Shown here: positions 2,838-29,900 of the stretch, in pieces
Position numbering within the stretch: position 1 is the first letter of the stretch
Layout of the letters: each line of letters starts with the position of its first letter
The notes under the pieces: model-generated
What the model was told of the DNA's origin: nothing
What the model saw: the letters and a program-made list of their open reading frames with translations, nothing else
The model's database searches: none
Assembly: GCA_038851565.1 (NCBI GenBank)
Contig: JAWCKV010000004.1
Span: forward strand, 1 to 34,706
DNA length: 34,706 nt
Direction of reading: 5' to 3'
Source: Candidatus Hadarchaeales archaeon
GTDB lineage: Archaea; Hadarchaeota; Hadarchaeia; Hadarchaeales; Hadarchaeaceae
Translations under genes and position numbers: made by a program

Positions 2838-2861
2838 TTCAATGCCAGTTGTACTAGAGTT

Positions 2862-3222: not shown

Positions 3223-3300
3223 TGGTGGGGTCGCCGAGATTTGAACTCGGGTCACCGGCTCCCGAAGCCGGCAGGATGGACCAGTCTACCCCACGACCCC
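3223..3300 (-). tRNA. tRNA-Pro(CGG), intronless, CCA encoded
   Basis: Reverse complement is GGGGTCG...CCGGC-TTCGGGA-GCCGG...CCGAG-TTCAAAT-CTCGG-CGACCCC-A-CCA, a full cloverleaf with anticodon CGG. Confidence 0.96.
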
Positions 3301-4577: not shown

Positions 4578-5684
4578 TTAGGCTACCTTCACCATGTGCG
4601 TCTGGAGATAACCGGTGATAACGGGGATATATCCCCTCAGCTCTTTGTCCAGTTCCGGATCACCGGTGTCGACCTTGAGCACCGGGGTCAGACTGAGCTT
4701 CTGAGGAGTCGCCAGCACTATTATGTTCTTCCTGCCGACCTTCCTTATCACCTTGGGGCTTATCTGCTGGTTGCCCCTCCCGAAGATGAATCCCTGTCTC
4801 CCCAGAGGGCTGACCACGATCGAGGCTGGCCTGCCCTCTATCTCCTCCAGTATCTGCCTCTCGTTGACATCCTTCCCCACGAGCTTGTAGTCCCTTACGA
4901 GGTCAACTCCCAGAAGGGTTGAGTCATAAATTCCCAGCTCCTCAGCCACGGCCCTCGTGGTGGTTCCTGGTCCGAGGATGTAGGTCCTGCCCCCCTCCAT
5001 GAGCTCAACCATCCATCTTGCTATGGCCTTCTGATCTGCCACCTCTAGGCCAGAACTGCCCTCCTTGCCCGCCTGCATCATCACAGGTTCATACGGCACC
5101 ATGAGGTATCCCCTGAGGGTCGCGGCAAGCTCATCCTTGCGGTAGGCTTCCTCGTCTATGTCCATCACCTCTGCCTCCCTCAGCGGCAACCCCTGGGAGA
5201 GAAAGAGCGCTGCCACATCGCCGGCTGCCTCGGGCGTGTTCGCGAAGACCGCGGAATATATCTTTACCCCTGATGGCACGCCGAGAACCGGCACGCTCGC
5301 CCCGGCTGCCTCGTAAACATCCCTAGCGGTTCCATCCCCTCCCACGAAAAGTATGAGCTCCGCCCCCCTCTCGATCATTCCCCTCACGGCCCTTTTCGTG
5401 TCATCAGCCGTTGTCTGACCTGGATTTATCTCCCCGAAGACCTCCACCGGGAGGCCGCACTCCCTCGCCCATCTCTCCCCCATCTCTCCCGGGTAGGTGA
5501 TGATCCTGAGGCTCTCCTTGAGCGGCAGGAGCCTCTTCAGCGCCTCAACCGCCCTTCGCGGCGAAACCGGCTCCGCTCCAAGCTCCATCGCCCTCCTCAG
5601 GGCCTCCGGACCGTCTGTTCCCTTCAGGCCAACCCTTCCGCCCATGCCCGCTATCGGGTTTACCACAACCCCTATCTTTTTCAT
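4578..5684 (-). CDS. ATP-NAD kinase / AcoX-like family protein
   Basis: VNPIAGMGGRVGLKGTDG, GGDGTARD, GVPSGVKIYSAVFA, GFIFGRGNQQIS. Confidence 0.85.
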   Translation of the reverse strand: MKKIGVVVNPIAGMGGRVGLKGTDGPEALRRAMELGAEPVSPRRAVEALKRLLPLKESLRIITYPGEMGERWARECGLPVEVFGEINPGQTTADDTKRAVRGMIERGAELILFVGGDGTARDVYEAAGASVPVLGVPSGVKIYSAVFANTPEAAGDVAALFLSQGLPLREAEVMDIDEEAYRKDELAATLRGYLMVPYEPVMMQAGKEGSSGLEVADQKAIARWMVELMEGGRTYILGPGTTTRAVAEELGIYDSTLLGVDLVRDYKLVGKDVNERQILEEIEGRPASIVVSPLGRQGFIFGRGNQQISPKVIRKVGRKNIIVLATPQKLSLTPVLKVDTGDPELDKELRGYIPVITGYLQTHMVKVA

Positions 5685-7210
5685 CGAAACGTCCCCAGGC
5701 CCATGCCTGCCCTGCCTTGCTCCTTGATGCGCATCCTCCAGCTGAGAACTGGCTCCCTTGCGGCCTTTAGCTCGTCCAGCCTTCCTATGGCAGTGCTCAG
5801 GGGGGCCGAGCGCAGCACTTCCGGCCTCTGCCTTGCATCCCTCTCTATCTCGCGCATCGCTCTCGCGAACCTGTCCAGCTCCTCCTTCGGCTCGGTCTCC
5901 GTGGGCTCCACCATAAGCGCCTCGGGCACTATCGGTGGGAAATAGTAGATGGGCGCGTGCATTCCGTAGTCCAGGATGCGCTTCGCCACGTCCCTTGCCG
6001 TTATTCCGGTTTCCCTCTTCAGCGGCTCAGCGGTGAATACCACCTCGTGCTTGCATATCCCATCGAAGGCTGGCCTGAACCCTTCAATCTCGGAGACCTT
6101 ATTCCTCACGTAGTTGGCGTTCACGACCGCCGCCTCCGTAGCTTCCCTCAGGCCCTCCTCGCCCATCATGAGGATGTATGTGTATGCCCTCACGAGCACC
6201 CCAAAGTTACCGTAGAATGCCTTTATCTTCCCTATGGACTCCGGCCTGTTGTAATCTAGATAGTACCTTCCGTTCTTCTCATCGTGCTCGACCACCGGAA
6301 CTGGAATGAACTTCTCCAGCCTCTCCCCAACCCCGACCGGTCCCGCACCCGGCCCTCCTCCTCCGTGTGGGGAGGAGAAGGTCTTGTGGAGGTTGAAGTG
6401 AACGACGTCAAATCCCATGTCTCCGGGCCTAGCCCTTCCCAGTATGCCGTTCATGTTCGCGCCGTCGTAGTAGAGGAGCCCTCCCGCATCATGGACCATC
6501 ACTGAGATATCCTTTATCCTGTCCTCGAAGAGCCCCAGCGTGTTCGGATTCGTCATCATCATCGCCGCCGTCCTGTCTGAGAGGGCCGCCTCAAGCGCCT
6601 CCATGTCAACCCTGCCGCGCGAATCCGATGGAATGACCCTGACCTCGAATCCTGCCATGGCGGCGCTAGCGAAGTTAGTGCCGTGGGCAGAATCCGGGAT
6701 CAGCACCTCGGTTCTTCTTTCGCCAATTGATCTATGATACGCCCTTATCAGGAGAAGTCCCAGAAGCTCCCCGTGGGCACCTGCTGCTGGCTGGAGGCAG
6801 ACCCTCTTCATTCCAGCGATCTCCGCAAGCATTCTCTCCAGCCTGTACATTATCTCCAGGCATCCCTGGACCGTGCTCTCGTCCTGATATGGATGGACGT
6901 TTGCGCTCTCGTCCAGGCCAGCCATCTCGTCGCATATCTTCGGGTTGTATTTCATCGTGCACGATCCTATCGGATAGAAAACCAGGTCTATGCAGTAGTT
7001 CATCTGCGAGAGCCTTGTGTAATGCCTGACGACCTCTGGCTCGGAAAGCTCTGGCAGGTTCAGCGATCTCCTCCTGAGGTTTTCAGGTACCTCCGGCTCT
7101 GCCAGCCTCTGGCCCGGGAAGGAGACGCCTTTCCTCCCGGGCCTGCTGAGCTCAAAGACCAGCGGCTCCAGGCCTGACTCCGTGCCCCATCTCGCCTGCC
7201 TGAAGCTCAT
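5681..7210 (-). CDS. gcvPB: Glycine dehydrogenase (decarboxylating) subunit 2
   Basis: GSCTMKYNP, QPAAGAHGE, SAHGTN, PLP motif NLHKTFSSPHGGGGPG. Start MSFRQARW overlaps the gcvPA stop (ATGA at 7207-7210). Confidence 0.95.
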   Translation of the reverse strand: MSFRQARWGTESGLEPLVFELSRPGRKGVSFPGQRLAEPEVPENLRRRSLNLPELSEPEVVRHYTRLSQMNYCIDLVFYPIGSCTMKYNPKICDEMAGLDESANVHPYQDESTVQGCLEIMYRLERMLAEIAGMKRVCLQPAAGAHGELLGLLLIRAYHRSIGERRTEVLIPDSAHGTNFASAAMAGFEVRVIPSDSRGRVDMEALEAALSDRTAAMMMTNPNTLGLFEDRIKDISVMVHDAGGLLYYDGANMNGILGRARPGDMGFDVVHFNLHKTFSSPHGGGGPGAGPVGVGERLEKFIPVPVVEHDEKNGRYYLDYNRPESIGKIKAFYGNFGVLVRAYTYILMMGEEGLREATEAAVVNANYVRNKVSEIEGFRPAFDGICKHEVVFTAEPLKRETGITARDVAKRILDYGMHAPIYYFPPIVPEALMVEPTETEPKEELDRFARAMREIERDARQRPEVLRSAPLSTAIGRLDELKAAREPVLSWRMRIKEQGRAGMGLGTFR

Positions 7211-8589
7211 GCCCTTCCCCCCATAATCTCCGCCACCGCGTCCGCGAACCTGTCCAGGTCCTCCTTCGTGTGGACCTCCGTCGTGCACAAAAGTGAGGAC
7301 TCACCGAGCCACGTGAATTCGCCCCTAAGCGGCTTTCCTCCGTGAACCCCTTTCCGAAGGAGCTCTGAGTTCAGCGCGTATGCCGTCTTTCCTGTGCACC
7401 TCATCACGAACTCGTTGAAGTGAGGGGACTCAAACAAGGGCGCCTGCACTCCTTTTATCTCGCCGAGCCTTTTCATCAGATATTTTGCGTTGGAGGCGCA
7501 TATCTCCGCCACCTCCCTGAGGCCGGCTGGCCCAAGCGAGGCCAAGTATACGGCCGCAGCTATAGCGCAGAGCGTCTCATTTGAACATATGTTCGATGTC
7601 GCCCTCTCCCGCCTTATGTGCTGCTCCCTTGTCTGAAGCGCCATGACGAAACCCCTCATTTTCCCATCAACCGTCGTGGTCATCCCGGAGATACGGCCCG
7701 GAAGCGTCCTTATCATCCTCTCCTCGCCCCTGCAGGCGAATATTCCCAGCGTCGGCCCGCCGAAGCTCACAGGATTTCCAAGCGGCTGCCCCTCCCCGAC
7801 GACTATGTCAGCTCCGTACTCTCCCGGAGGTTTAAGTATGCCGAGCGAGATGGGGTTAACGCCGACAACGAAGATGGCGCCGGCCCCGTGCGCCATCCGC
7901 TCTATCTCGTCCACCTGCGTCTCCAGAAATCCCAGGTACGCCGGATTCTCTATGTAAACTCCCGCCACTCCCCCATCCAGCTTCCTCCTCAGGTCTCCTA
8001 GGTCCACCTGACCGGTCCTCTCATCGTGTTTTACCTCCACGACATCGATTCCGGGGCCCGAGGTGTAGTTCAGCAGAACTGAGAGGCGTTCCCTGGACAT
8101 CAGATCGGGAACAAGAAACCTCTTCCTCCCGGTTAATCTGCAGCACATGAGGGCGGCCTCACCAAGAGCGGTCGCCCAGTCATACATCGATGCATTTGCC
8201 ACCTCAAGGCCCACAAGCTCGCATATCATGCTCTGGTACTCGAAAAGCGCCTGCAGGACGCCCTGGCTGACCTCGGCCTGATAGGGCGTGTAGGAGGTCA
8301 GATATTCTGCCCTTGAGATGAGCGCCCTGACATGGGACGGAACATGATGATGCCAAACGCCTCCCCCCAGAAAAGCCGGCATTTCGGACAGGGAAACGTT
8401 TTTGGACAGGATCTCCCTCACGTGGCGCCTGATCTCCTGCTCCGACATCCTGGGCGGCAGGCTCAGCGGACGCCCCAGCCTCACCTCCTCGGGAATATCG
8501 GAAAAAAGATCGTCAACGCTGGCCACTCCTATCTCCGCCAGCATCTCCTCCCTGATCTTCCCGAAGTTGGGAATGTAGTGGTGGCTCAT
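7207..8589 (-). CDS. gcvPA: Glycine dehydrogenase (decarboxylating) subunit 1
   Basis: YTPYQAEVSQG, NASMYD, FGGP, QTREQHIRRERATSNICSN. Start taken at MSHHYIPN. Confidence 0.95.
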   Translation of the reverse strand: MSHHYIPNFGKIREEMLAEIGVASVDDLFSDIPEEVRLGRPLSLPPRMSEQEIRRHVREILSKNVSLSEMPAFLGGGVWHHHVPSHVRALISRAEYLTSYTPYQAEVSQGVLQALFEYQSMICELVGLEVANASMYDWATALGEAALMCCRLTGRKRFLVPDLMSRERLSVLLNYTSGPGIDVVEVKHDERTGQVDLGDLRRKLDGGVAGVYIENPAYLGFLETQVDEIERMAHGAGAIFVVGVNPISLGILKPPGEYGADIVVGEGQPLGNPVSFGGPTLGIFACRGEERMIRTLPGRISGMTTTVDGKMRGFVMALQTREQHIRRERATSNICSNETLCAIAAAVYLASLGPAGLREVAEICASNAKYLMKRLGEIKGVQAPLFESPHFNEFVMRCTGKTAYALNSELLRKGVHGGKPLRGEFTWLGESSLLCTTEVHTKEDLDRFADAVAEIMGGRA

Positions 8590-8599
8590 CTTCCTGCAC

Positions 8600-9022
8600 T
8601 TACCCAAGCGCTTTCAAATACTCTTCGTATTCCCTCGCGCTCATCAGTTTTTTGATCTCATCAGGGTCCTTGGGCTCTATCGTGCATATCCATCCACGAT
8701 CGTATGGGCTTGTGTTCACGAGCTCGGGTCGATCCCTCAGCTCTGCGTTCACTTCCCTTATTGTCCCGCTCACCGGAGCATAAACCGCAGACACGGCCTT
8801 TATGGACTCGAGGATGGCTACCTCCATGTCCCTCTCCTTTTTATCCCCGAGTTGCCTCACCGACTTACCCACGCTTGGGAGCTCCACATACACGACATCG
8901 CCAAGCTTTGCCTGTGCGTAATCAGTGACCCCAACCCTCACCACTTTTCCCTCTGCCCTCGCCCACTCGTGGTCCTTCGTGTAGCGGAGGTCCTCTGGAA
9001 TTTTTATTTCGCCCCTGCCCAT
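8600..9022 (-). CDS. gcvH: Glycine cleavage system H protein
   Basis: YTKDHEW, GVTDYAQAKLGDVVYVELP, lipoyl-Lys motif ESIKAVSAVYAPVSG, PELVNTSPY..GW. Start taken at MGRGEIKIP. Confidence 0.95.
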   Translation of the reverse strand: MGRGEIKIPEDLRYTKDHEWARAEGKVVRVGVTDYAQAKLGDVVYVELPSVGKSVRQLGDKKERDMEVAILESIKAVSAVYAPVSGTIREVNAELRDRPELVNTSPYDRGWICTIEPKDPDEIKKLMSAREYEEYLKALG

Positions 9023-9060
9023 CTTCGCACCTTTTCCACTCTTCAGCTCCAGTAAAAACC

Positions 9061-10014
9061 CTATCTCCACATCTCGTCCTTTATCCACTCCAGCTCGATC
9101 TTGGATGGCGGCCTAGGATAGTTGTAAATCGGCCCCCGTGGCGACTCGTTGAAAAACGGCCTGTTACAGCCCGGACACCCGGAGGTCTGAAATGGCTCCC
9201 CTGAGCTGATTATCTCGTCCAGCGGCTCCTCGTCCATTCCAAAGTGAACGGCCCTGCCCTCCCTAAATTCCATTTGCTCTGACCTTGAAAGCCCATGGGA
9301 GATGAGATATCTAATCACCTGGACCCTCCGGTACGATCCTATCTCCGGTTGGGGTCTCTTTTCCATGGGCGTGCCAATCACCGGAAAAAAAGCGAAGAGG
9401 CCGACATCTATGCCCAGATCGTGCATCCGCTGGATCGTCCTCGCGGCCTCCATCTCGCTCTCACCAAGGCCGACGATCAGATGTGTGGTCGCCTTTCCGA
9501 AAACGTCGCGCGCCTCGACCAGCGCCTCAACGTGCCCCTCCCACGTATAATCCGGGCCCTTTATCCTGGCGAAGAGCAGAGGAGTAGAGCAGTCCAACGG
9601 TATGCACATCCTCTCAGCCCCGGCTTCCTTGAGGTCTTCAATTTTGTCCGCGCTCACTGGGGGAGAACAAACGGAGATCGGTATATCGCACGTCTTGCTC
9701 AGTTTTCTAACGATCTGGAGGGCATCACGAAAAGAATTTTCATGGTTTACCCGCTGTACGCATATCCTCCGGAAACCGGACTCAGCCAGCCTCTCCAGCA
9801 CTTCCTCTGCCCTCCACTCCGGCCAAACCACCCTTGAGATCATCGATGGATCTCCCCTGGCCTCCCTTGCCTTTGGACAGAACCTGCAGTTCGCTGAGCA
9901 TCTCTCCATTCCGTCGAGCATGATGTGGGCGGCGGAGGGGGCCACATCCTGCTTTCCCTCCCAGAGTCCGAGAACAACTCCTGTGCCGAATGCCACCCTC
10001 AGCCGTTCGACCAT
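9061..10014 (-). CDS. lipS2: Radical SAM protein, LipS2-type lipoyl synthase subunit
   Basis: CSANCRFC (CX3CX2C) plus C-terminal TSGCPGCNRP, the LipS2 signature; adjacent to gcvH and lipS1. Confidence 0.85.
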   Translation of the reverse strand: MVERLRVAFGTGVVLGLWEGKQDVAPSAAHIMLDGMERCSANCRFCPKAREARGDPSMISRVVWPEWRAEEVLERLAESGFRRICVQRVNHENSFRDALQIVRKLSKTCDIPISVCSPPVSADKIEDLKEAGAERMCIPLDCSTPLLFARIKGPDYTWEGHVEALVEARDVFGKATTHLIVGLGESEMEAARTIQRMHDLGIDVGLFAFFPVIGTPMEKRPQPEIGSYRRVQVIRYLISHGLSRSEQMEFREGRAVHFGMDEEPLDEIISSGEPFQTSGCPGCNRPFFNESPRGPIYNYPRPPSKIELEWIKDEMWR

Positions 10015-10910
10015 CTGACCCACCCTCTGGCTCCCAGAGGCACCGAGCAGCATGCATCCATCAAGCCAACCCTCATCCCCATCCCGGAGGCAAGCTCAAG
10101 CGTCTTCCGGCTTGGCATCTCCATCCTATCCGCCCCCGCCATCAGAGCTTCCCGCTCATATCTCTCCCTGTCAGCTCCCCTAGGCCTCATGCACCCCAGG
10201 GAGATCTCCCCGGATATCCGCCTCCTCGCCTCTGCGATCAGCTTCCCGACCGCCTTTGGACTCGGGGGACGCATGCCGCCAAAAGCTGTGCCTGAAGGCG
10301 GCACGAAAGCCAGAAAAACAAGGACCTCCGGATCTGCATCCACCGCGATATCAACCGCGCTTTCCCCAAGCAGCTCCCCGCCATGCGCGCCTATGCATAT
10401 GTGGGGGACCACATGGGGGATGTGTCTGCGAAGATCGTTCATGGCTCTCCTGTAGTCGGCGGGAGCTTTGTCAAGTCCGGTCAGGAGCTTTATTGTCCTG
10501 CGGTCGCCAAACAGCTCGAAGTCAACGAGGTCTATTCCTGCCCTGCCAAGTTCCCTGACCAGCCATCCCGGCGGGAGTCCGGTGTGCGCCGCCAGGAACA
10601 GGTTTGTTTCCTCCTTTATTGTTTGTATGACATCGAGGCAAGAATCCAGCGGAACATATCCCTCCTCGTTGCAGCCCCCGCTCAGCATCACGCCAAATGC
10701 CCCGCCTGCCTCCAGATCCCTGCACCTGCCGTACAGCTCCTCGGGTGTCGTGCACGGCATCATCCCCCTCAGGTACCTTCCCTCGCAGCGCGCGCACATG
10801 AGCTCGCAGCTATGGCCTGTTACGGATATCGCCGGGAACCTGTTTCCCGGAAAACTGGCGATGAAATGTCGCTGCTCAGCCTGCGTCCCTCTCACCTCAT
10901 CGCGTTCCAC
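9999..10910 (-). CDS. lipS1: Radical SAM protein, LipS1-type lipoyl synthase subunit
   Basis: FPAISVTGHSCELMCARC, GCMR motif and C-terminal CC (DACCS), the LipS1 signatures. Confidence 0.85.
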   Translation of the reverse strand: MERDEVRGTQAEQRHFIASFPGNRFPAISVTGHSCELMCARCEGRYLRGMMPCTTPEELYGRCRDLEAGGAFGVMLSGGCNEEGYVPLDSCLDVIQTIKEETNLFLAAHTGLPPGWLVRELGRAGIDLVDFELFGDRRTIKLLTGLDKAPADYRRAMNDLRRHIPHVVPHICIGAHGGELLGESAVDIAVDADPEVLVFLAFVPPSGTAFGGMRPPSPKAVGKLIAEARRRISGEISLGCMRPRGADRERYEREALMAGADRMEMPSRKTLELASGMGMRVGLMDACCSVPLGARGWVRWSNG

Positions 10911-11647
10911 TCAACGGATGCATATTTCTTCCTCAGCTCCAGAGCAAGCCTGAGCTCATCGTCCGTCATGTCCCCGTGAAGGATCTCCGCCCCCATGACC
11001 TCCTCGAATCCCCGGATCACGTGCTCCCTCACCTCGCTCACGCCCGGCCTTCTTCCGATCTCCCTTTCCACGGTGGTCACCCTGTCGTAAACGCTCTCTA
11101 TTCCCTTATCCGATATCTTCGCTCCGCCGACCCTGAGGATCTCAAACATTCTCCTCACGTCCGGGGAAATGAGGATGGTCCCGTGCTGCAGGACGCTCCC
11201 CCACCTCCGCGTCTGCGCGCTCCCAGAGATCTTCCTTCCGTTCACCTGGACATCGTTGACCGGCCTGAACTCCGCCCCTATTCCCATCCTCCTTAGCCCG
11301 GCCACCAGTCCCCCGCAGATGAGCCCATAGGACTCCATTATGTCCTCCGGCACATCCTCCTCGCGGCAGACGAAGCTGTACGTTAGTTCGCCTTCTGAGT
11401 CGTGAAAAACCGCCCCGCCCCCGGTGATCCTCCTCACCACATGTACGCCGTATCTCCCCGCTGCATCGAGATCGACCTCTCTGGCCAAACTCTGGAAAAA
11501 ACCTATGGAAACAGCGGAGGGGGTCCATGTCCAGAACCTCAGGGTGCTCGGGTACCTTCCCTCCGAATTGAGCCTGAGCAGGGCCTCATCTATGGCCATG
11601 CTCGTGAAAGCATCATCCCTGCGCATCGGCAAAACCCTGATCCTCAT
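10892..11647 (-). CDS. lplA: Lipoate/octanoate-protein ligase catalytic subunit
   Basis: MAIDEALL, VSIGFFQ, VVRRITGGGAVFHD, NDVQVNGRKISGSAQ, QHGT. Confidence 0.92.
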   Translation of the reverse strand: MRIRVLPMRRDDAFTSMAIDEALLRLNSEGRYPSTLRFWTWTPSAVSIGFFQSLAREVDLDAAGRYGVHVVRRITGGGAVFHDSEGELTYSFVCREEDVPEDIMESYGLICGGLVAGLRRMGIGAEFRPVNDVQVNGRKISGSAQTRRWGSVLQHGTILISPDVRRMFEILRVGGAKISDKGIESVYDRVTTVEREIGRRPGVSEVREHVIRGFEEVMGAEILHGDMTDDELRLALELRKKYASVEWNAMR

Positions 11648-11930
11648 GGCTCCCAGCCGCCTTCATCACGGCCTCAACCCAGTGCTCAACGTCGACCATC
11701 GGCGTCCTGGCGCCGGTCCTATCGTAAAATCTCCTCACGGCTCCCCTCACGGCCTCCCTCTCCACGCACACGCCGATAAGTTCCCTCTCCAGCTCGAAAA
11801 GCGCCTCCTCCGGGTACATGAAGAAGTCCCCGGTGATGGATACGCGTGATATCCTGTTTTCCTCGATGCCCACCTCCACCCTTATCAGTCCCTTCGGGGC
11901 CTTGAAATCCGCCCGTCCCACTACTTCCAC
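11613..11930 (-). CDS. lplB: Lipoate-protein ligase accessory (C-terminal domain) subunit
   Basis: KAPKGLIRV...ISRVSITGDFFMYPEEALFELERELIG resembles the stand-alone LplA C-terminal domain. Confidence 0.85.
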   Translation of the reverse strand: MEVVGRADFKAPKGLIRVEVGIEENRISRVSITGDFFMYPEEALFELERELIGVCVEREAVRGAVRRFYDRTGARTPMVDVEHWVEAVMKAAGSHEDQGFADAQG

Positions 11931-12703
11931 CTCGTGAGTATTTCCTCCCTTCTGAAGGTCGCCTTGCTCAGCAGAAACAGCCCAGCATCCGCGAGCCCCA
12001 GCACCGCAGCAAAGAGCCCGAGCGAGAGCGGGTTGAGGGAAATCGCACCAATCATGTACATCATGTAGAATGCGATGAACGGCAAAATCGGAATTGAGCC
12101 GATCTGCATTGCCGCCCTAACATCGCTCACCTTGGATGAAACTAAAACGCAGAACGAAACTGAAAAGAGGGCCATCAGCGGGCAGTAGACGCAAAGAACT
12201 GCGACGGAGAGGAGATTGGGCAGAAGCAGGTGCCCCAAGGCCTGAAAAGTGAGCACATCCACCACGACTGTGAGGCAGACGAAGGATAAACCCGTGGCGA
12301 GCATTGCCGGAAGGAAGGCACCCAGCATCTTCCCGGCGAGTATTTCGGAATCAGTGACCGGGGTCGCCAGGAGCGGCTCCAGCTGCCTGTTGACCTTCTC
12401 CCCCACGAAGGTGTAGGACGCTATGACCGAGGGCACCATTACCGGGATGACCATGAAAAGCAGGAGAGTCATGTTGACCACCGCCATTACCATTGCCTCC
12501 CTGTACGGTAGGCCTGCCGGGGCAAATGGCGGGAGCTCTTCACTGAGTGGCAGCTCCATGTTCAAAACGGGATAGATGTACACGATGGGCAGGACGACGG
12601 AAAGCACAAGCGGCAGCACGACCATGCCGTAAAGCACATATCTGTGTTTCCTCGCGCTCGCCATGTCCTTCTTCGCAATTTCCCAGACCCTATCTCTCCT
12701 CAT
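11921..12703 (-). CDS. ABC-2 type exporter permease
   Basis: Six hydrophobic segments, motif FVGEKVNRQLEPLLATPVTDSEILAGK. Start taken at MRRDRVWEIAKKD. Confidence 0.88.
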   Translation of the reverse strand: MRRDRVWEIAKKDMASARKHRYVLYGMVVLPLVLSVVLPIVYIYPVLNMELPLSEELPPFAPAGLPYREAMVMAVVNMTLLLFMVIPVMVPSVIASYTFVGEKVNRQLEPLLATPVTDSEILAGKMLGAFLPAMLATGLSFVCLTVVVDVLTFQALGHLLLPNLLSVAVLCVYCPLMALFSVSFCVLVSSKVSDVRAAMQIGSIPILPFIAFYMMYMIGAISLNPLSLGLFAAVLGLADAGLFLLSKATFRREEILTRWK

Positions 12704-13613
12704 TCCTTCCCACCAGCCTGAGGTAGACCTCCTCCAGGACGTTCGGCGGCCTCGTGACATACCTTATCCTCCCGCCCGCCCTCACCACAGCACTGACCAT
12801 GGAAGGATTCACCCTGTCCGGATCCTCCACCTCCACAAGCAGCCTGTTTCCCTCTGCGCTCACCCTCCCCACGCCCCTGACCCTCTTCAGCGCCCTCACA
12901 AACCTCCTGGCCGGACCTTCCAGATGTATCTCCGTTTTGGACCTCCCAAACTGACGCTCCAGCTCCCTCGTGGAACCAACCGCCACCAGCCTCGTGTTCA
13001 GTATTGCCACGCGATCGCAGAGCCTCTCGGCCTCGTAGAGGTTGTGAGTGCACATGACTATCGTTCTCCTCTCCCGCTTCAGCTCCAGCACGAAATCCCT
13101 GACTATCTTCGCAGCATCGGGCGAGAGCGAGGCTGTGGGCTCGTCCAGGAACAGCACATCGGGCTCGTGAACCATCGCCCTTATGATCGCTATCTTCTGC
13201 TGCATGCCCTTCGAAAACCTCCCTATCGGCTCATCCCTCCTTCCCCACAGCCCGACCATCCTGAGCAGCTCCTCTATGTTCCTCCTTTTTCTGGCCTCCG
13301 GGACTCCGTACAGCCTGGCGTAAAAATCTAGGTTTCTGTACGCGCTGAGCTCCGGGTACAGCCCTGGGTTCTCGGGAAGCAGCCCTGTGATCTCCCTTAT
13401 CCTCATCGACTCCCTCCCTATTTCATGCCCTCCGACAAACGCTGTCCCGGATGTGGGCCTCAACAGGCAGCAGAGCATCCTGACCGTGGTTGTCTTCCCC
13501 GCGCCGTTTGGGCCCAGAAGCCCGAATATCTCTCCCCCCCTCACCCGCAGCGTGAGATCCTCAACTGCCGTCGTGCCGTCAAATCTCTTGGTGAGACCTG
13601 CAAGTTCAACCAT
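12690..13613 (-). CDS. ABC exporter ATP-binding protein
   Basis: GPNGAGKTT, FSKGMQQK, LFLDEP, CTH switch. Start overlaps the macrodomain stop (TGATG). Confidence 0.92.
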   Translation of the reverse strand: MVELAGLTKRFDGTTAVEDLTLRVRGGEIFGLLGPNGAGKTTTVRMLCCLLRPTSGTAFVGGHEIGRESMRIREITGLLPENPGLYPELSAYRNLDFYARLYGVPEARKRRNIEELLRMVGLWGRRDEPIGRFSKGMQQKIAIIRAMVHEPDVLFLDEPTASLSPDAAKIVRDFVLELKRERRTIVMCTHNLYEAERLCDRVAILNTRLVAVGSTRELERQFGRSKTEIHLEGPARRFVRALKRVRGVGRVSAEGNRLLVEVEDPDRVNPSMVSAVVRAGGRIRYVTRPPNVLEEVYLRLVGRNEER

Positions 13614-16994: not shown

Positions 16995-17372
16995 CTAAAA
17001 GTCTTCCCTGCGCCTCCAAGCCCTTGATTTCCACTGCAGGACGAGTTCCTTCCACTTTTCAAATTTTTCTGATTTGCGCCCACCAACTCCCCTCGAAAGA
17101 AGATTTGCCAGCTGGATCAGCTCTTCTTTCTTTCTTATCTCCAGACGGTGTAGGTTTCCTCTTTTTATCACCTTCCCCACCCCCAAGATACTCCTGGCCA
17201 TTTCCACTGGAAATTCGTCCTTAGAATCTGCATAAAACACTGGGTTATTGTAAAGGTATGTCTTTTCTCCTTTTTTTGTGATCTTTTTTATAACTATTTT
17301 ATTTACGGAGAAAACCCCCTTAATCTCCACAAAGGCCGTGATCCACCCCAAATCGAATTCTTTTATTGTCAT
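16995..17372 (-). CDS. Free-standing single-motif LAGLIDADG-fold protein with degenerate catalytic motif
   Basis: LGWITAFVEIKGVFSV aligns with I-CreI-type YLAGFVDGDGSI; later ILGVGKV and a K-rich C-terminal helix fit the fold. The catalytic Asp position is Lys. Confidence 0.65.
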   Translation of the reverse strand: MTIKEFDLGWITAFVEIKGVFSVNKIVIKKITKKGEKTYLYNNPVFYADSKDEFPVEMARSILGVGKVIKRGNLHRLEIRKKEELIQLANLLSRGVGGRKSEKFEKWKELVLQWKSRAWRRREDF

Positions 17373-17684
17373 ATTTATACCATATATTTATCATAACTAA
17401 ACAAATTAATTAAATAAATGGTTCCAGTGGAAACAAAGGGGTAGGGGATCATCGTCCGGTAAGTTTCAAAATAAAACATCAGAATATAAATCAATAAATT
17501 TCAGTTCCAACCAAGATAACGCCTTAGTTACTTTTAAAAAACATTTTAAATCAATAAATAATCTAAATGACAATTCTTATTTTGAATATCATTAAAAAAA
17601 AGAAAATAATAAAAAAACGGTTTTATCATAATCCAGCTACCCCTCTCCCCGATCTTCCCATATACAAAAAAAGAAGAGCCTAGC
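17373..17684. other. Candidate replication origin (oriC): ORB plus AT-rich unwinding element
   Basis: Canonical ORB at 17421-17441, very AT-rich 17460-17630, and gene orientation switches from mostly minus to mostly plus here. Confidence 0.75.
17421..17441 (+). promoter_or_regulatory. Origin recognition box (ORB) with G-string
   Basis: GTTCCAGTGGAAACAAAGGGG matches the archaeal ORB consensus (TTCCAGTGGAAA dyad plus G-string). Confidence 0.85.
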
Positions 17685-18509
17685 TTGGTGGCGCGCGTGT
17701 ACTACCAGAGAATCGATGTAAAACGAGCCGTGTGCGGGTATGCGGAGTCTGGAAAGGGCCATGGAGTACGAGAGTGTGCATTTTTCAACAGAAAGAATGG
17801 AGCATTCCACAGGTATCTGGAGACGCCGGAGGGGAAGAGTCCGGTTGATCTCACGGCCAAGGGATTTTCGGAGGCCCTCAGAATGGGGGCGGATGCATTT
17901 TACTGTTCTTACTGGGTCTACGACAGCCGAGACTTTTCAACGCCAATAGGCAGGGACCTGGTATGGATCGTGAGGGCGGAGAAAGGAGACCTGAAATTTG
18001 CAAAAAGAATAACAAAGATGGTAGTCGAGGCGCTTTCAAGCGCGGGTGTGGACCCGCTGGTTAAATACTCCGGCGATATGGGATTCGACATAGTTATCCC
18101 GCTCGAGGATATCCCATTTGAGGTCTGGTTGGGGGATCTAAGGGCGCTGGATGAGCTGCAAGGGGAGCTTTCAGAGACGATTGTGGGCTACATCCGCTCA
18201 CGGCCCGGCGTCACCGTTGAGGGCGGCAATTCCACCTTCAGGATAAAGGAGGACGAAAAAACCTCCCTCCTCTCCGAACTCCGGGTTAAGCGAGGCCTTT
18301 TGCTTGCGCCGATGAGCATAAACCCGGAGACCGGCCTTGTCTCAGTTCCGGTGGATCCGATTGAGTTGGACTCATTCACTATTTTCGATGCTAGCCCATC
18401 GAGAGTTAAAACGCGTGAGTGGGCTACCGGGAGAGCACCGAATTATGGTCTGATGAGATACGCGAAGGCATGGCAGCCCCAGGCGGTTTCAGGCAAGAGC
18501 ACGGGATAG
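17685..18509 (+). CDS. Archaeo-eukaryotic primase (PriS-like) homologue, predicted catalytically inactive
   Basis: AEP motifs in order but eroded: IGRDLVWIVR (expected DLhhDhD), VKYSGDMGFDI (expected SGxxGxH), LLLAPMSINPETGLVSVPV (expected RxPxSxHxKTGxVSVP). Confidence 0.7.
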   Translation: MVARVYYQRIDVKRAVCGYAESGKGHGVRECAFFNRKNGAFHRYLETPEGKSPVDLTAKGFSEALRMGADAFYCSYWVYDSRDFSTPIGRDLVWIVRAEKGDLKFAKRITKMVVEALSSAGVDPLVKYSGDMGFDIVIPLEDIPFEVWLGDLRALDELQGELSETIVGYIRSRPGVTVEGGNSTFRIKEDEKTSLLSELRVKRGLLLAPMSINPETGLVSVPVDPIELDSFTIFDASPSRVKTREWATGRAPNYGLMRYAKAWQPQAVSGKSTG

Positions 18510-19180: not shown

Positions 19181-20033
19181 CCCCGATTAGATGCGTGCCG
19201 TCGCAGGACATTCCGGTATTCAGGTGGCTCAGTCCTTCCCTGCACGTGGCAAAGGTCAAATTGTTTCTTTGGCATGCTTCCCTAACCAAAAGCATGAGTT
19301 TTTCTCTCATCTCCATGGGAAGGTACCATCCACGCTTTCTTTTCCCCCTTGTGAAGTAAAGCTCATTGAGCTTTGATGCTTCATCACGAAAGATCGAGGA
19401 AAACCTCCTCCAGCCATCAAGGCGAGGTTTGAATGTAGATCCGGTTACGTGTGAAGCACCGTGCTTGGCGGCAGCCCCAACGATGGACTCCACCTCATGA
19501 TCGTTGAGGAGCGGGATGAGCGGATCTAGCCGGAGGGCGACAGGGATCTCGTGCGAAACCCTCCTCATGGCCCTTAACCTAGCGCTTGGACTTGGGGCGC
19601 CTGGTTCCAGCTTAGATGCGAGAGTTTCGTCCAAGGTCGTAATGGTGAAGCTAACTACACATGGGATCTTTTTCAGCAGATCTAGATCGCGGACAACAAG
19701 GTCAGATTTAGTTATTATCTGGACCTTTCTGCGTTCCCTGGCCATGAGCTCCAGACATCCTCTTGTGAGCCTGAGCTCGGCCTCCACAGGAGGATAGGGA
19801 TCTGAGCTGTTTGACATGCTTATCACTAGATCTGGATCAGCTTTTCTCAAGTCGCGCTCGACCCTGTACAGCAGATCTTTCTTCGGCCTGCACTCAAAAG
19901 CGCGGGGAATGTAGGAGGAGATATAGCAGTAGACGCATGAGTGGAGGCACCCCGTGTATGGATTAAGCCCGTACTTCCTGGGGCATGTGCATAGCGGATC
20001 CTTCCAGGGGTCAAACTCGCGTATAACGTCCAT
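19173..20033 (-). CDS. Radical SAM protein, SPL-like family
   Basis: FDPWKDPLCTCPRKYGLNPYTGCLHSCVYCY, SNSSDPYPP, LEPGAPSP. Start taken at MDVIREFDPW. Confidence 0.85.
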   Translation of the reverse strand: MDVIREFDPWKDPLCTCPRKYGLNPYTGCLHSCVYCYISSYIPRAFECRPKKDLLYRVERDLRKADPDLVISMSNSSDPYPPVEAELRLTRGCLELMARERRKVQIITKSDLVVRDLDLLKKIPCVVSFTITTLDETLASKLEPGAPSPSARLRAMRRVSHEIPVALRLDPLIPLLNDHEVESIVGAAAKHGASHVTGSTFKPRLDGWRRFSSIFRDEASKLNELYFTRGKRKRGWYLPMEMREKLMLLVREACQRNNLTFATCREGLSHLNTGMSCDGTHLIGAI

Positions 20034-20054
20034 CCTACCAAAAGAAGTAATATT

Positions 20055-20330
20055 GCGCCGAGATAAAGGCCCCCACATCCCTCCATGACCCCGGGCGATG
20101 TAGCCCAGCCGAACCACCCGAAGGGCAGCCCGCCAGACCACATCGTTCCGATCTTTTCAGACCGTGTGGTCACCCTTTCGAGTTACCACGCCGCGGCCCT
20201 GAAGAGACTCTGAACCAGTCTTGTCAGCCTGCTGTTCGGAGCACCACGGATCGGCCAAACCCACGGTACCCCTACCAGTGGGATCCACCAAGACCAGTTC
20301 TAGAGACCTTCCGGATCACCCTCTCGGCGC
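20055..20330 (-). ncRNA. Unassigned highly structured RNA, about 276 nt
   Basis: Terminal 9-bp helix GCGCCGAGA/TCTCGGCGC, several nested helices and two GAAA-capped hairpins. The non-Watson-Crick pairs read as G-U only on the minus strand. BRE/TATA upstream and a T-rich tract downstream. Confidence 0.7.
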
Positions 20331-20353
20331 GTTTTTTACTCAATTTAGTAGGA

Positions 20354-20366
20354 TAAAAATTTTCCG
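20354..20366 (-). promoter_or_regulatory. BRE-TATA promoter for the structured RNA
   Basis: Minus-strand CGGAAAA-TTTTTA, with the TATA element 24-29 nt upstream of the first G of the terminal helix. Confidence 0.6.
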
Positions 20367-20384
20367 TTTAGGTTCAAACCAAGC

Positions 20385-20404
20385 GCGAAAAAGCTTATAT
20401 ATAA
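20385..20404 (+). promoter_or_regulatory. BRE-TATA promoter for the Cys-rich microprotein gene
   Basis: GCGAAAAAGC-TTATATATAA about 40 nt upstream of the GTG at 20445. Confidence 0.6.
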
Positions 20405-20444
20405 ATCCAATGTGATTTCACAGGACGTGACAGGAGGAATTCTG

Positions 20445-20582
20445 GTGCCAAAGTGCTGCTCCTCTTGTTACTTGTACGAGGATTGCGAGAAAAGAAATGA
20501 GTGCTGCGAGGAGTGCGACTTTTACAACAGGGGAAGGTGCATGCTTTCCGAGGAGGATGCGTACAGCGTCGTCAAGGACTAA
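20445..20582 (+). CDS. 45-aa cysteine-rich microprotein (putative metal-binding)
   Basis: MPKCCSSCYLYEDCEKRNECCEECDFYNRGRCMLSEEDAYSVVKD; RBS GGAGG and a TATA box upstream; below the ORF-track size cut-off. Confidence 0.7.
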   Translation: MPKCCSSCYLYEDCEKRNECCEECDFYNRGRCMLSEEDAYSVVKD

Positions 20583-25184: not shown

Positions 25185-26489
25185 ATGAAACCGCGCGAGG
25201 CAGTGAACAGAATGTTTTCGCTTCTGAGGGAGCATCATGAGTGGTTCAAGAGGTCAATCCCCCTCATAGCGAGCGAGAACGTAACAAGCCTGGCGGTCAG
25301 GGAGGCCATGATATGCGATTTCCAGCACAGGTATGCGGAGGGCTGGCCGTATGAAAGGGTGTACGCGGGCTGCAGGTACATAGATCAGGTGGAGATCCTC
25401 GTCATGGAGCTTGCGAGGGAACTTTTTGGCGCAGAGCATGCCAACGTTCAGCCCATTTCCGGGGTGGTGGCAAACCTGGGGATGTACACTGCGCTCACAA
25501 AGCCGGGGGATTTGATGATGTGTCTCTCCATACCATGCGGTGGCCACATCAGCATGGGGAGGGAGCAGATGGGGGGGACAGCCGGGGCAGTCCACGGCCT
25601 CAAGATAGAGTACTGGCCCTTCGACGAAAAGCGCATGAACATAGACGTTGACGCCGCTGCAAGAAAGCTCAGGGAGGTGAGGCCAAAGCTCGCGCTCTTC
25701 GGCGGCAGCGTCTTCCTGTTTCCGCATCCGGTGAGGGAACTTTCAGAGGTCGCGAGGGAAGTTGGGGCATATGTGGGCTACGATGCCGCTCATGTTTCTG
25801 GGCTTATAGCGGGAGATCAGTTCCAGCATCCCCTGAAGGAGGGCGCGGACATAATGACGTGCAGCACCCACAAGACCCTTCCCGGGCCGCAGCGTGGGAT
25901 GATATTATGCAAAAAGGAGCTGGCTGAGGCCGTCAATCGGGCGGTATTCCCAGGCGTTGTCAGCAACCATCACTTGCACTCCATGGCGGCCTTGGCTGTT
26001 GCGCTGGCCGAGATGTTGGAGTTCGGGAGGGACTACGCGGCCCAGATAGTGAAAAATGCGAGGGCATTGGGCAAGGCGATGTATGAGAGGGGTCTGGACG
26101 TGCTCTGTCCAGATCTTGGCTTCACGAACTCCCACACGTTGGTCGTGAGCGTGTTGAAGTATGGAGATGGTGGAGAGATCGAGAAGAGGCTGGAGAACGC
26201 CAACATCATACTCAACCGTAACCTCCTGCCATGGGACATCCGCGAGGGCAGAAATTTCAGAAAGCCCGGAGGAATAAGGCTCGGCACATCTGAGGTCACA
26301 AGGCTTGGAATGAGGGAGAGGGACATGGAGGAGATAGCAGAGTTCATAAAGAGGGTAGTCATCGACGGGGAAGCCCCGGAGAGAATAGCCGAGGAGGTAG
26401 CGGAGTTCAGGAAGGATTATCAGAATATCCACTATTGTTTTGACTCCGCAGCTGAGGCATACGAGTACATCGAGCTAAAAAAATTTTAA
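25185..26489 (+). CDS. glyA: Serine hydroxymethyltransferase, archaeal type
   Basis: LIASEN, RYAEG, NVQPISG..AN, YDAAH, PLP motif STHKTLPGPQRG, GIRLGT. Confidence 0.95.
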   Translation: MKPREAVNRMFSLLREHHEWFKRSIPLIASENVTSLAVREAMICDFQHRYAEGWPYERVYAGCRYIDQVEILVMELARELFGAEHANVQPISGVVANLGMYTALTKPGDLMMCLSIPCGGHISMGREQMGGTAGAVHGLKIEYWPFDEKRMNIDVDAAARKLREVRPKLALFGGSVFLFPHPVRELSEVAREVGAYVGYDAAHVSGLIAGDQFQHPLKEGADIMTCSTHKTLPGPQRGMILCKKELAEAVNRAVFPGVVSNHHLHSMAALAVALAEMLEFGRDYAAQIVKNARALGKAMYERGLDVLCPDLGFTNSHTLVVSVLKYGDGGEIEKRLENANIILNRNLLPWDIREGRNFRKPGGIRLGTSEVTRLGMRERDMEEIAEFIKRVVIDGEAPERIAEEVAEFRKDYQNIHYCFDSAAEAYEYIELKKF

Positions 26490-26529
26490 ATTTTTAGTTT
26501 GATGTGGGATGCGAAGCTTTCCAGAGACC

Positions 26530-26567
26530 ATTTCCACTGATTTCCACTATTTCCACTGGAATAGGGG
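26530..26567 (+). repeat. Three tandem ATTTCCACT units ending in an ORB-like TTCCACTGGAATAGGGG
   Basis: ATTTCCACT at 26530, 26540 and 26549; the last copy completes the TTCCACTGGAA dyad followed by GGGG; followed by an AT-rich tract. Confidence 0.65.
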
Positions 26568-26925
26568 ACTATACTTTTCTTTTTTATTGAATAGAAACTT
26601 TTTCGTTTGATAAATAAACAAACAATAAAACGAAATTATATCGGAAGAGGGTGATTTTCCATTGACCTCTCTCTAAAATCCGGAAAAAAACTCCCCTTCA
26701 CTTATTAATGGAATAAAAAAAGGAGGTCTTGGGGATGAAAAGGATATGTGTGGGGAGAAGGTTCATCGAATGTCGAAAAAATTTACAAAAATTATTTCAT
26801 ATTGGAAGGCCTATAGTTGAAAATATTTCTTTAAACTCAGGCATAGTGGTGAAAAATTTTTACAAAAGTATTTTTAAGTACACAGAAGTTCGTCTTCCAC
26901 TGGTTTGGAGGCTGGAGGCTGCGTT

Positions 26926-29900
26926 ATGGGAGTCAAGGAGAGGTTAGAGGAGTTTATCCACAGGAAAGAAGTGATAAAGGAGATCAGGAGGAGAACCTCG
27001 GCAGGTCACAAATCGGTCATAGTTGAGTTTTCCGACCTGCTGGAGTTCGATAAGGACCTAGCAAAAGCCCTGCTGGACTCCCCGCACGAGCTCCTGGAAT
27101 GGGCTGACAAAAAGCTCGAGGAGCACACGGGCATCCCCAACATGCACCTGCGCGTCAAGGGGCTGCCTGAAACGGTCGAGATAAGGAACATAAGGGCCGA
27201 GCACGTTGGAAAGTTCATACAGATAGATGGGATCCTCACAAAGGCCGGAGAAGTGAAGCCCGAGGCGAGGGAGGCGGTGTTCAAGTGCAGGTTCTGCGGC
27301 GAGGAGAACAGGGTGCTTCAGGGTGGAGAGCTCTTCAGGGAGCCACTCTCGTGTGAGAATCCGAACTGTCGCAGGAAGGGGGCGTTTGAACTTGTTGTGG
27401 AGAGCACGGTGTTCAGGGACTGGCAGAGCATATCGGTTCAGGAGCCTCCCGAGAAGCTGAGGGGGGGAAGGATACCGCAGAGGCTGGATGGGATAGTGAG
27501 GGACGATTTCGTTGACATCGCGGTCCCGGGAAATCATGTCGTGATCACCGGCGTGCTGAGGGTGTTCCAGGAGAGGCAGAAGAGGGAGCGCAGGACTACC
27601 TTCAGAAAGATACTGTTTGTGAATCATATCGAGGTTAAGCAGAAGGGAGTGGAGGAAACCGAGCTCACCCCGGAGGACGAAAAGAGGATCAAGGAGCTGG
27701 CAAAGGACCCATGGCTAAGGAACAAGATCATCCAGTCGATTGCGCCAGCGATTCACGGCCACGATCTGGTGAAGGAGGCCGTGGCCCTCCAGCTCTTTGG
27801 ATGCAACCCAGTGGAGCTTCCGGATGGGACGAGGATAAGAGGGGATATCCACGTGCTGCTATGTGGGGATCCGGGATGTCTGGTGGCTGATGAACGCATC
27901 GTGCTGGGTAACGGAGCTATTGTGAAGATCGGGAGTTTGGGAACAAAACACCTCGAGCGGTTGAACTTACAGGTCCTGACGGGGCAGGGACACACAAGGG
28001 ATTTGGCGACTAGGTTTCACATCTATCGAGACCAGCCAATAATAGAAATAATTACAGAGACGGGAAAATCCATCAAAGGAACACATAATCATCCCCTGCT
28101 GGTGCTGGAGAGGAGATCATCTAAAGGTTTTCCGAGCCCACCGCTCAGGGTCTGGAAGAGACTGGACGAAATAAAGCCCGGAGATAAGGTTGTGGCGGTT
28201 CCTTGGATCCCATGTACCATCACAGCCCCCTTAAAAACGGGATGGCGGATCTTGCCACGAAAATATGGGCCGCGGCCCAGGTGTAAACTTCCGGAGTATC
28301 TTGACGATGAAGTGGCGGCGCTTTTGGGATACATGCTTGGAGATGGTTGGGTTAGACGCGATAGAATAGGTTTTGATATTAACTCCGAGGAGAGAGACCT
28401 TTTGCCGATTCTCACCTCAATTATAGAGAAAAAATTCGGGTTATCTCCCAAAATCAGAGGGAGACTGTGGGCAGAAAGTTACTTTGGACAAAGAAAGGTC
28501 AGGAGACGGCAGCCTCTCCTGGAGGTCACAGTTCACAGCGTTGACCTCGCTGCCAACCTGAGCTTTCTCAGGGAAAAGCGTGTCCCCGACCTGATAATGA
28601 TGTCTGGCAATAGGGTGGTGTCCTCATTCCTGGCCTGGCTTTTTGAGTCCGACGGTTGTGTGTTTTCGAGGGGCAGGGGAAGAAGAGGAATTCAGCTCAA
28701 GGGAAAAGAGATAGAGATGTTGCGTGACGTTCAGATGCTGCTTTTGAGGTTTGGCATTCATTCCAGGATAGTTGGAGACAATCTCGTAATACGAAGGGCA
28801 AAATCCATCATCAAGTTCTCCCAGAGCATTGGCTTCAGATCCAACAAAAAGAGAAGAAAACTAGAGGAGCTAGTTTCATGTTGTAAAAATTTAAAGCACT
28901 GCAGAGGACAGAGTCGCAGCGAGCGTGTCGTTATAGTTCGTCCAGCTGGTTTTGCAGACGTTTACGACATAGAGGTTCCCAGATCCCACCGGTTCATAGC
29001 CAACGGTATCGTCTCTCACAACACGGCAAAGAGCCAGATCCTCAAGTGGGCGTCAAACGTGGCCCCAAGAGGGCTTTACACCTCGGGAATGAAATCAACT
29101 GCAGCCGGCATAACTGCAGCGGCGGTTCGTGATGAGATAGGCGGGGGGTGGGCGCTTGAGGCAGGAGCTCTTGTGATTGCAGATGGCGGTCTTGCGGCCG
29201 TGGATGAGTTTGAAAAGATGCCCGAGCAGGAATCGTCTGCTGTGCTTGAGTCAATGGAGCAGCAGACGATTAGCATAGCCAAGGCCGGGATAGTGGCCAC
29301 GCTGAACACCCGCACAGCGGTGCTCGCCGCAACCAACCCTAAGCTCGGCAGGTTCGATAGGAACCGTCCACCATCGGAGCAGCTTGGAATAGAGCCAGTT
29401 TTGCTCTCAAGGTTCGACCTAATACTGCTGATGAGGGACGAGCCGCGCCCCGATCTGGATCGTTCTATAGCCCAGCACGTCCTGCAGATGCACTCCGCCC
29501 CGAAAAAGGCGTCAAAGGCCCCGTTCGATCCGGAGTTCCTCAGGAAGATCGTGATATACGCCAGAAAGTACCTGGATCCAAAAATAGAGGACAAGGAGGT
29601 CATGAAGAGCATCGAGGACTTCTTCGTTGAGTGGAGAAAGATAGTGGCGCAGGGTGCACCTCTCCCCATCACTGTCAGACAGCTCGAGTCGATAATAAGG
29701 CTGGCAAAGGCAAACGCGAGGATGAGGTTGAGCGACAGGGTAACGGTTGAGGACGCGAACCGCGCGATCTCCCTCATCAAGACCAGCCTCAGCGAAGCCG
29801 GAATAGACACCGAGGCAAACGTGGTGGACATAGACCTGATAATGACAGGCATACCCAAGTCCCAGAGGGAGAAACGCCAGAAGATAATGGACATAATAGA

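Follow-up and report, generated by a model that had tools for sequence, protein, structure and literature searches.

To our knowledge, few large structured RNAs are known from archaea beyond rRNA, tRNA, SRP RNA, RNase P RNA and guide RNAs. In bacteria, OLE, GOLLD, ROOL and raiA are large orphan structured non-coding RNAs (ncRNAs): they are linear, covary heavily, have a narrow phyletic range and their own transcription unit, and had no known role at discovery. In archaea, the tRNA-splicing endonuclease EndA cuts a motif called bulge-helix-bulge (BHB). As described in PMC4090602, this motif is a 4-bp helix with two 3-nt bulges, and in pre-tRNAs its central helix contains the first two bases of the anticodon. 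EndA and RtcB circularize an ncRNA in Thermoproteus, according to PMC4731332, and the general circularization pathway is summarized in PMC12558985. The Thermoproteus case is the SRP RNA, which is reported to come from a stand-alone gene with a TATA promoter; its leader and trailer form a BHB, it is cut by the tRNA-splicing endonuclease and ligated into a stable circle, and this circularization repairs a permutation of the gene (PMC4731332). Circles with the same motif and cut positions are described for the pre-16S and pre-23S rRNA intermediates and for tRNA introns, where they are intermediates or by-products of a larger functional RNA (PMC12558985; PMC4090602). In the intron of tRNA-Trp, the BHB circle releases a functional RNA, a C/D box sRNA of ~50-65 nt that is housed in the tRNA gene (PMC4090602).

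We analyzed a stretch of 34,706 nt (the window) from contig JAWCKV010000004.1 of a Candidatus Hadarchaeales archaeon (GCA_038851565.1), and we report an RNA encoded on its minus strand at 20055-20330. We consider it likely that this is a dedicated ncRNA gene of a new family whose transcript is circularized by an EndA/RtcB-type pathway, with a role as a scaffold as our best guess. The identity of the enzymes, the status of the circle as the main functional form, and the function are our inferences. As in Thermoproteus, the gene is stand-alone with a TATA promoter, the leader and trailer form a BHB, and the transcript would be cut and ligated into a stable circle. Unlike the Thermoproteus SRP RNA, the hadarchaeal RNA matches no known family, shows no detectable permutation, and occurs alongside a normal SRP RNA. 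It shares the motif, the cut positions and the circular product with the pre-rRNA and tRNA-intron circles, but in this case nothing besides the circle is conserved as a product, and the "exons" measure 15 and 10 nt. As with the tRNA-Trp intron, a functional RNA would be released as a BHB circle, but this one is 251 nt, has its own gene, and lacks conserved C/D or H/ACA boxes. In size class, covariation, narrow range and possession of a transcription unit it resembles OLE, GOLLD, ROOL and raiA, although it has no similarity to them in sequence or to their Rfam models. A full-text literature search, mostly at the level of abstracts, found no prior description that links these archaea to such an RNA. 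The processing pathway is already known; the novelty lies in the RNA family and in how the pathway is used. The RNA would add a heavily covarying family of ~250 nt to those known from archaea. If our reading is true, then the tRNA-splicing machinery also makes a free-standing circular RNA, beyond introns, rRNA maturation and the repair of permuted genes.

The original prediction, made from the letters of the window, was of an unassigned structured RNA of ~276 nt on the minus strand, with its own BRE/TATA at the right spacing and with TTCTTTT after its 3' end. It also proposed an Rfam scan, a collection of homologues with a test for covariation, a look at metatranscriptomes, and a check that the RNase P and SRP RNAs exist elsewhere in the genome. 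The predicted gene and its signals agree with what we found. Folding of 20055-20330 gives -151.5 kcal/mol for the minus strand, versus a shuffle mean of -111.4 (z = -7.84; 0 of 200 shuffles were as stable), and -96.7 kcal/mol (z = -3.97) for the plus strand. BLASTN against 40 relatives and its own genome matched this stretch in 15 of 41 genomes. The homology limits in relatives are exact: both BLASTN and a covariance model put the start at 20330 and the end at 20055/20054, and in an alignment with flanks (n = 15), conservation begins at GCGCCGAG and ceases at CUCGGCGC. The covariance model scores 20055-20330 at 248.3 bits, across model positions 1-282. The promoter (20353-20366, minus strand) has a purine-rich, BRE-like CGGAAA and then a TATA-like TTTTTAT (20353-20359) whose center is ~26 nt upstream of where the RNA begins. 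A TTTWTAT block is at the same distance in all 15 aligned homologues, and the remainder of the upstream flank is without conservation. The TTCTTTT run (20040-20046, minus strand) lies 9 nt past the RNA and is likely an archaeal terminator; a T-rich run follows the conserved end in all 15 aligned homologues. The stretch from 20055 to 20330 on the minus strand is an independent, single-copy, structured ncRNA gene with a primary transcript, or precursor, of 276 nt.

The RNA does not belong to a known family that we could identify. At the gathering score, Rfam 15 (4,227 models) matched only tRNA in the window, with nothing on the RNA. A local scan of 19900-20500 at E ≤ 10 gave two chance-level matches alone: DUF3800-VI inside the RNA (E = 3.7, 15.3 bits, versus a gathering score of 35) and CRISPR-DR43 in the promoter flank (E = 6.6). 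In 18 homologous loci, a local search at E ≤ 5 found no full or partial match on the RNA. We rejected archaeal SRP RNA and archaeal RNase P RNA as identities; the original prediction had found no RNase P or SRP helix-8 signatures. Neither RF01857 nor RF00373 matches the RNA at E ≤ 10, and the genuine RNAs are full-length on other contigs (Archaea_SRP at C29:496-826, 131 bits; RNaseP_arch at C14:17070-17358, 220.9 bits). On inspection of the alignment, we saw neither C/D nor H/ACA boxes that were conserved, and none of the snoRNA families in Rfam gave a match. GGCUGACAAG has a candidate CUGA and ACA, which differ among homologues (GGCUGGC, GGCUGUC, GGCGGUC or GAAGAG).

The structure of the RNA is supported by covariation. 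RNAalifold on the 15 aligned sequences gave 90 pairs, of which 36 have compensatory changes, and the covariance model was built from this alignment. Its matches in genomes and metagenomes (59, of which 45 are distinct) are the homologues used below. Across the 45, 96.0% of cells are in standard pairs, versus 35-47% if the partners are slid by 1-3 columns; 50 of the 90 pairs have changes in both partners; and none of 500 column shuffles attains any of five measures. The G-U pairs had been noted as specific to this strand, and several of them are invariant in 45/45 sequences, which fixes the strand.

The outermost helix, P1 (20322-20330 with 20055-20063, minus strand as for all features of the RNA), was drawn correctly as the terminal helix in the original prediction. 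It has 9 bp, 99.5% of its cells are paired, and 3 pairs change on both sides; its strands lie in the leader and the trailer that would be removed. P2 (20318-20321 with 20067-20070) has 4 bp and all four change on both sides, with pair 12:300 being GC in 26 sequences and AU in 19, with no mismatch. A 20-nt joining segment contains a near-invariant CCGG (C, C and G in 45/45, the fourth G in 44/45), an invariant CUA, and then a conserved G. Arm A (P3-P6, 20212-20300) is a 12-bp stem followed by irregular helices. Its facing strands GUGGAUCCCACUG and CAGCAGGCUG are at least 88% conserved in every column across the 45 sequences, and its apical loop has a conserved GGCC core (majority consensus UAGGCC). 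Arm B (P7-P12, 20080-20205) is a stem that leads into a three-way junction with P9, a hairpin that is GNRA-capped in most homologues, a short P10, and a long P11-P12 hairpin with invariant G-U pairs.

Most of the helices that had been drawn by eye are recovered by covariation: the hairpins at 20166-20189 and ~20149-20164 are P9 and P10, and the long hairpin at 20096-20145 is P11-P12. The 12-bp helix 20289-20300/20212-20223 is P3, which covaries, but the branched domain that it was thought to enclose is an unbranched irregular arm. A second helix, 20311-20318/20086-20094, is ruled out. Its 3' strand belongs to P8, which does covary (5 of 7 pairs change on both sides), whereas the near-invariant CCGG in its 5' strand does not. 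A search by mutual information for tertiary pairs or pseudoknots gave nothing convincing except 25:285; the top scores were dominated by shared ancestry, and true pairs were 5 of the top 60. In a subgroup of homologues (L165, L170, L175, L047 and L044), 9-12 nt are inserted ahead of the 3' strand of P2. These nucleotides can pair with the GUCUC segment (GAGAC/GUCUC or GAGAUCC/GGAUCUC) and repeat the CUCUAG motif, which suggests that this subgroup may use a different closing helix.

P1, P2 and two 3-nt bulges together are, judging from the alignment, a BHB motif. The original prediction contained neither this processing site nor its probable circular product. The 5' bulge is G-A|U (20315-20317) and the 3' bulge is U-U|A (20064-20066), as placed by the spacing and by the RNA joint described below. 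Because the first two anticodon bases are inside the central helix, the cut comes after the second nucleotide of each bulge, so we predict cuts at 20316/20315 and 20065/20064. The 5' spacer, from P2 to the conserved CCG(G), is 3 nt in 43/45 sequences, and the 3' bulge, from P2 to P1, is 3 nt in 45/45. P2 has 4/4 pairs in 42/45 sequences and 3/4 in the remaining 3. All elements together (P1 of exactly 9 bp, P2 of 4 bp with every pair formed, and 3 + 3 nt) occur in 39/45 distinct sequences. The inner helix is weak: 2/4 positions pair in 35/45 sequences and 4/4 in 5/45, and in 31/45 there is a single consecutive pair adjoining the bulge. As for the strict hBHBh' form, the 9-bp outer helix is present, and in the genome's own well-fitting tRNA introns the inner helices have 1-4 of 4 pairs. 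In a diverged copy from another genome (G023, see below), the minimum-free-energy fold has a continuous 12-bp helix in place of the BHB motif.

We also examined the 14 tRNA introns that ARAGORN identified in the same genome. Four of these (Arg-GCG, Arg-CCU, Ile-GAU and Ser-GCU) fit the BHB geometry perfectly, with all 4 central and all 4 outer pairs; Trp has 3/4 central and 4/4 outer pairs and also fits. The other 9 of 14 misfit, and several of these are probably miscalls. The tRNA-Trp gene (G000 C6:11329-11457) has a 53-nt intron with UGAUGA and CUGA boxes, like other archaeal C/D-box introns, and the mismatch in its central helix is one C-A in otherwise standard geometry.

The genome encodes EndA (PF01974, 116 bits) and RtcB (PF01139, 372 bits, cut by the contig end). 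We read the genome as encoding a single EndA, of 179 amino acids, and the assembly has two genes for it (G000 C49:3577-3834 and C10:17891-18148). The second copy is 89% identical and lies on a contig that is 82-84% identical in DNA, so it is probably from a co-binned strain rather than the two copies being alpha and beta subunits. From its size, we presume that this EndA is of the strict homotetrameric type. Only the (alpha-beta)2 and epsilon2 types are reported to cut relaxed motifs efficiently (PMC6379350).

Evidence for a circle comes from X7, a metatranscriptomic RNA-Seq run that we examined as assembled contigs. Its contigs are near-identical to the RNA of the window (with 1 or 2 differences in every 70-110 nt). 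Across 20074-20311 the summed word depth is 140-527, and in the flanks it is 0-8. The two edge bins have depths of 26.4 (20040-20073) and 11.7 (20312-20345), which correspond to one contig of depth 99.6 matching over 9 and 4 bases, so the cover stops at 20065 and 20315. That same contig, of 158 nt, reaches 20315 and continues at 20065, that is, it goes back by 251. It has 51 letters on the shorter side of the junction, with no shared letters, and it joins RNA position 266 to position 16, which are exactly the two predicted cut sites. This joint is absent from the DNA runs X1 and X10, which cover the whole stretch. Given the extent of the cover and a contig that joins the predicted cut sites, we take a 251-nt circle (RNA positions 16-266; 20065-20315), made by EndA and an RNA ligase, to be the most likely form of the mature RNA, as seen in one contig from one metatranscriptome with a near-identical organism. 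The RNA is apparently abundant in the single metatranscriptome that holds it.

We propose the following maturation. The precursor of ~276 nt would be transcribed from its TATA promoter, and its ends would pair as the 9-bp P1 and the 4-bp P2, flanked by 3-nt bulges on opposite strands. EndA would cut after the second nucleotide of each bulge, which would remove a 15-nt leader and a 10-nt trailer, and an RNA ligase, most likely RtcB, would join positions 16-266 into the 251-nt circle. Cleavage would also remove the 5' strand of P2, and the freed 3' strand would then pair with an upstream segment to form a hairpin, PX. PX would close a core of two arms, namely arm A with its near-invariant internal loops and arm B with its three-way junction. 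This exchange of helices between precursor and circle would be a simple and testable case of refolding that is coupled to processing.

PX was found by running RNAalifold on the 45 sequences rotated as circles. Its 5' strand is AAGGUCUC (20303-20310), just after the CCGG, and its 3' strand is GGGGCCUU (20066-20073), which includes the freed strand of P2 and two retained bulge bases. The loop of the hairpin holds the ligation junction and the near-invariant CCGG. For this 7-pair helix, 89.1% of cells are paired (versus 28-61% when slid), with both partners changed in 4 of 7 pairs; in 500 shuffles, 83 reach the pair count, 2 the cell count, and 4 the covariation score. We regard this as moderate support from the alignment for the pairing. 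An alternative or pseudoknot pairing between these two segments had been suggested from the letters, and PX bears it out, in competition with the better-covarying P2. In our model, PX can form only once cleavage frees its 3' strand. The minimum-free-energy fold of the linear RNA prefers PX over P2.

It is also possible, although we think it unlikely, that the functional form is the linear 276-nt RNA and that the junction is a minor by-product, a decay intermediate, or an artefact of the library or the assembly. The joint is carried by one assembled contig, from which the ratio of circular to linear RNA cannot be derived, and surveys of archaeal circular RNAs report many ncRNA circles without a known role (PMC3326292; PMC12558985). 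The linear RNA already has a very stable minimum-free-energy fold, and the inner helix of the BHB is weak. However, both ends of the joint lie exactly on canonical cut sites without shared letters, and the depths of the edge bins in X7 (26.4 and 11.7) leave no contig over the leader or the trailer. Also, covariation maintains P2 and the 3 + 3-nt spacing in 39/45 sequences, and a plain terminal stem would need neither. A far less probable explanation, to which we give very little weight, is that a known RNA (SRP RNA, RNase P RNA or a piece of rRNA) has diverged strongly or been circularly permuted. The permuted SRP RNA of Thermoproteus is reported to be restored by the same processing (PMC4731332), and our Rfam scans took the RNA in its linear register. 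But even in local mode Rfam gave no partial match (at E ≤ 10 in the window or at E ≤ 5 in the 18 loci), and the genome has full-length SRP and RNase P RNAs elsewhere.

The neighboring genes raise two more alternatives. In the window, the RNA ends 22 nt before the start of a radical SAM gene (Pfam Radical_SAM and DUF1848; the nearest NCBIfam models are PA0069 and Rv2578c, all below their cut-offs), and a gene for HSP20 is upstream and divergent. Of 30 genome loci, 17 have the radical SAM gene downstream on the same strand, 22-183 nt away, and HSP20 is found at 13 by tblastn or at 20 by clustering of ORFs at a looser threshold. These arrangements could suggest a cis-regulatory leader (a riboswitch or a thermosensor) for either the radical SAM gene or the divergent heat-shock gene, and the original prediction had left the choice between a leader and an independent ncRNA open. 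We decide it in favor of the independent ncRNA, and we consider the leader highly improbable. At 9 of the 30 loci, a convergent gene for an Ogg glycosylase is directly downstream instead, so synteny rules out a leader of the radical SAM gene; at one of these nine (G015), a 27-aa remnant of the radical SAM gene is left. At 4 of 30 loci, neither gene is in the available downstream DNA, which is under 500 nt for two of them (G041 and G004). Furthermore, a promoter and a T-run belong to the RNA itself, its transcription points away from HSP20, and another genome (G010) keeps the radical SAM gene, beside the small cysteine-rich gene discussed below, without the RNA. Alternatively, the RNA might be a BHB intron in the 5' UTR of the radical SAM mRNA; splicing would act on read-through transcripts, and the circle would be the excised intron, whether or not it has a separate function. 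The 17 loci with the same-strand gene fit this idea, and BHB motifs are reported in some archaeal pre-mRNAs (PMC6379350). We think that an intron is improbable, if less so than a leader. It is contradicted by the nine loci with the convergent Ogg gene, including the one with the remnant, and a T-run stands between the RNA and the radical SAM gene. The contigs of X7 cover the RNA at 140-527 and leave the gene almost bare (0-8), and 50 covarying pairs are far beyond what excision would need.

On the other side of the RNA is a gene for a small protein (20448-20582, plus strand) of ~45 amino acids with an acidic tail and eight invariant cysteines (CC-x2-C-x5-C-x5-CC-x2-C-x7-C). It has no match in Pfam or NCBIfam. 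The gene is divergent from the RNA and adjoins it at 25/30 loci. As a partner specific to the RNA it is ruled out: the protein is present in 41/46 genomes of the family, including two genera that largely lack the RNA (4/4 genomes of g10 and 6/8 of g11). Because its gene abuts the radical SAM gene in G010, it could be a metal-binding protein or the peptide substrate of the radical SAM enzyme.

A filtered search with the covariance model found one copy per genome in 31 of the 66 genomes of the phylum, and all 31 are from one family. There were hits in 30 of the 45 other genomes of this family and in 0 of 20 genomes from five other families. If we include the diverged copy in G023, then the RNA is found in 32/46 genomes of the family and was not found in 14/46. 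In public records, the member genomes are named Candidatus Hadarchaeum, Hadarchaeota, Hadesarchaea and Hadarchaeales. One public record is labelled Hodarchaeaceae, and its RNA match (275.3 bits) equals that of a member of the family (G003), so it is probably the same genome. The model confirmed 24/24 metagenome loci. A loose motif pattern gave at least 80 loci in public contigs, and of the 9 that were tested with the model, the 5 labelled as archaea were all positive and the 4 bacterial ones were all negative. In viral contigs, a motif pattern gave no matches. The public runs that hold DNA of the RNA are hot-spring metagenomes.

Within the family, the filtered search gave 0/4 for genus g10 and 1/8 for genus g11. 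At the syntenic site in G023 (g10), with filters off, there is a diverged copy of 259 nt (L201:1749-2007, 64.8 bits), which lacks the CCGG segment. In G010, which is 95% complete, there is no RNA at the syntenic site, where the small cysteine-rich gene directly abuts the radical SAM gene, and nhmmer found nothing in the whole 1.05 Mb. In G010, at least, the RNA has truly been lost. In G018 (L200, ~1675-1850), a GC-rich stretch at the syntenic place has a weak match of 8.4 bits and is possibly a decaying copy. At the syntenic sites of 7 further RNA-negative genomes, also with filters off, there was one match (10.9 bits, E = 0.044, L206 in G057), which we read as chance, as it pairs the two ends alone and skips the whole core. 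In genus g11, the ~260 nt at the syntenic place lack conservation from species to species, and the absence of the RNA looks like loss. The RNA is dispensable in some lineages. Its sharp presence and absence (32/46) gives a handle for finding partner proteins by phylogenetic profiling.

As to function, our tentative suggestion, which is somewhat short of probable, is that the RNA is a heat-stable and exonuclease-resistant scaffold that binds one or more proteins via the near-invariant loops of arm A. This is based on those irregular loops, the GNRA loop on P9 in most homologues and the conserved G-U pairs, along with the high apparent abundance and the circular topology in a lineage from hot springs. 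A ribozyme or another autonomous activity is a minority possibility. More speculatively, and we doubt it, this could be the first dedicated gene with a large, tertiary-structured circle as its sole product, either the core of a lineage-specific ribonucleoprotein or a ribozyme that has its own cellular role, with the switch from P2 to PX as a checkpoint in maturation.

Our searches for partners and targets gave no candidate. There was no conserved partner gene among the neighbors at 30 loci, and no antisense target stood out among exact genome matches, on both strands, to conserved stretches of at least 6 nt. A conserved 13-mer occurs in the genome in the RNA itself alone, and a conserved 10-mer occurs 9 times, versus 1.6 expected. 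The RNA contains UAG and UGA stops, and the circle lengths predicted for homologues are not divisible by three. In phylogenetic profiling against all of G010, 239 of 936 crude ORFs of the window's genome were without a match, and the result was uninformative. Within the window, those without a match comprise genes for glycine cleavage and lipoate, together with a toxin-antitoxin pair.

A cluster at 4578-12760 (minus strand) encodes the P and H proteins of glycine cleavage, a lipoate-protein ligase, a radical SAM protein, NAD kinase and an ABC-2 permease, and it has no counterpart in G010, which is near-complete. At 2586-3161 (minus strand), there is a ParE toxin with a Phd/YefM antitoxin, also absent from G010, beside a tRNA (3226-3300). 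The window also has two AT-rich islands, at 17100-17700 and 26400-27000, with a GC content of 0.31-0.37 versus ~0.55 elsewhere. The first island is just before an ORF (17685-18509) with a weak match to the LigD primase-polymerase.
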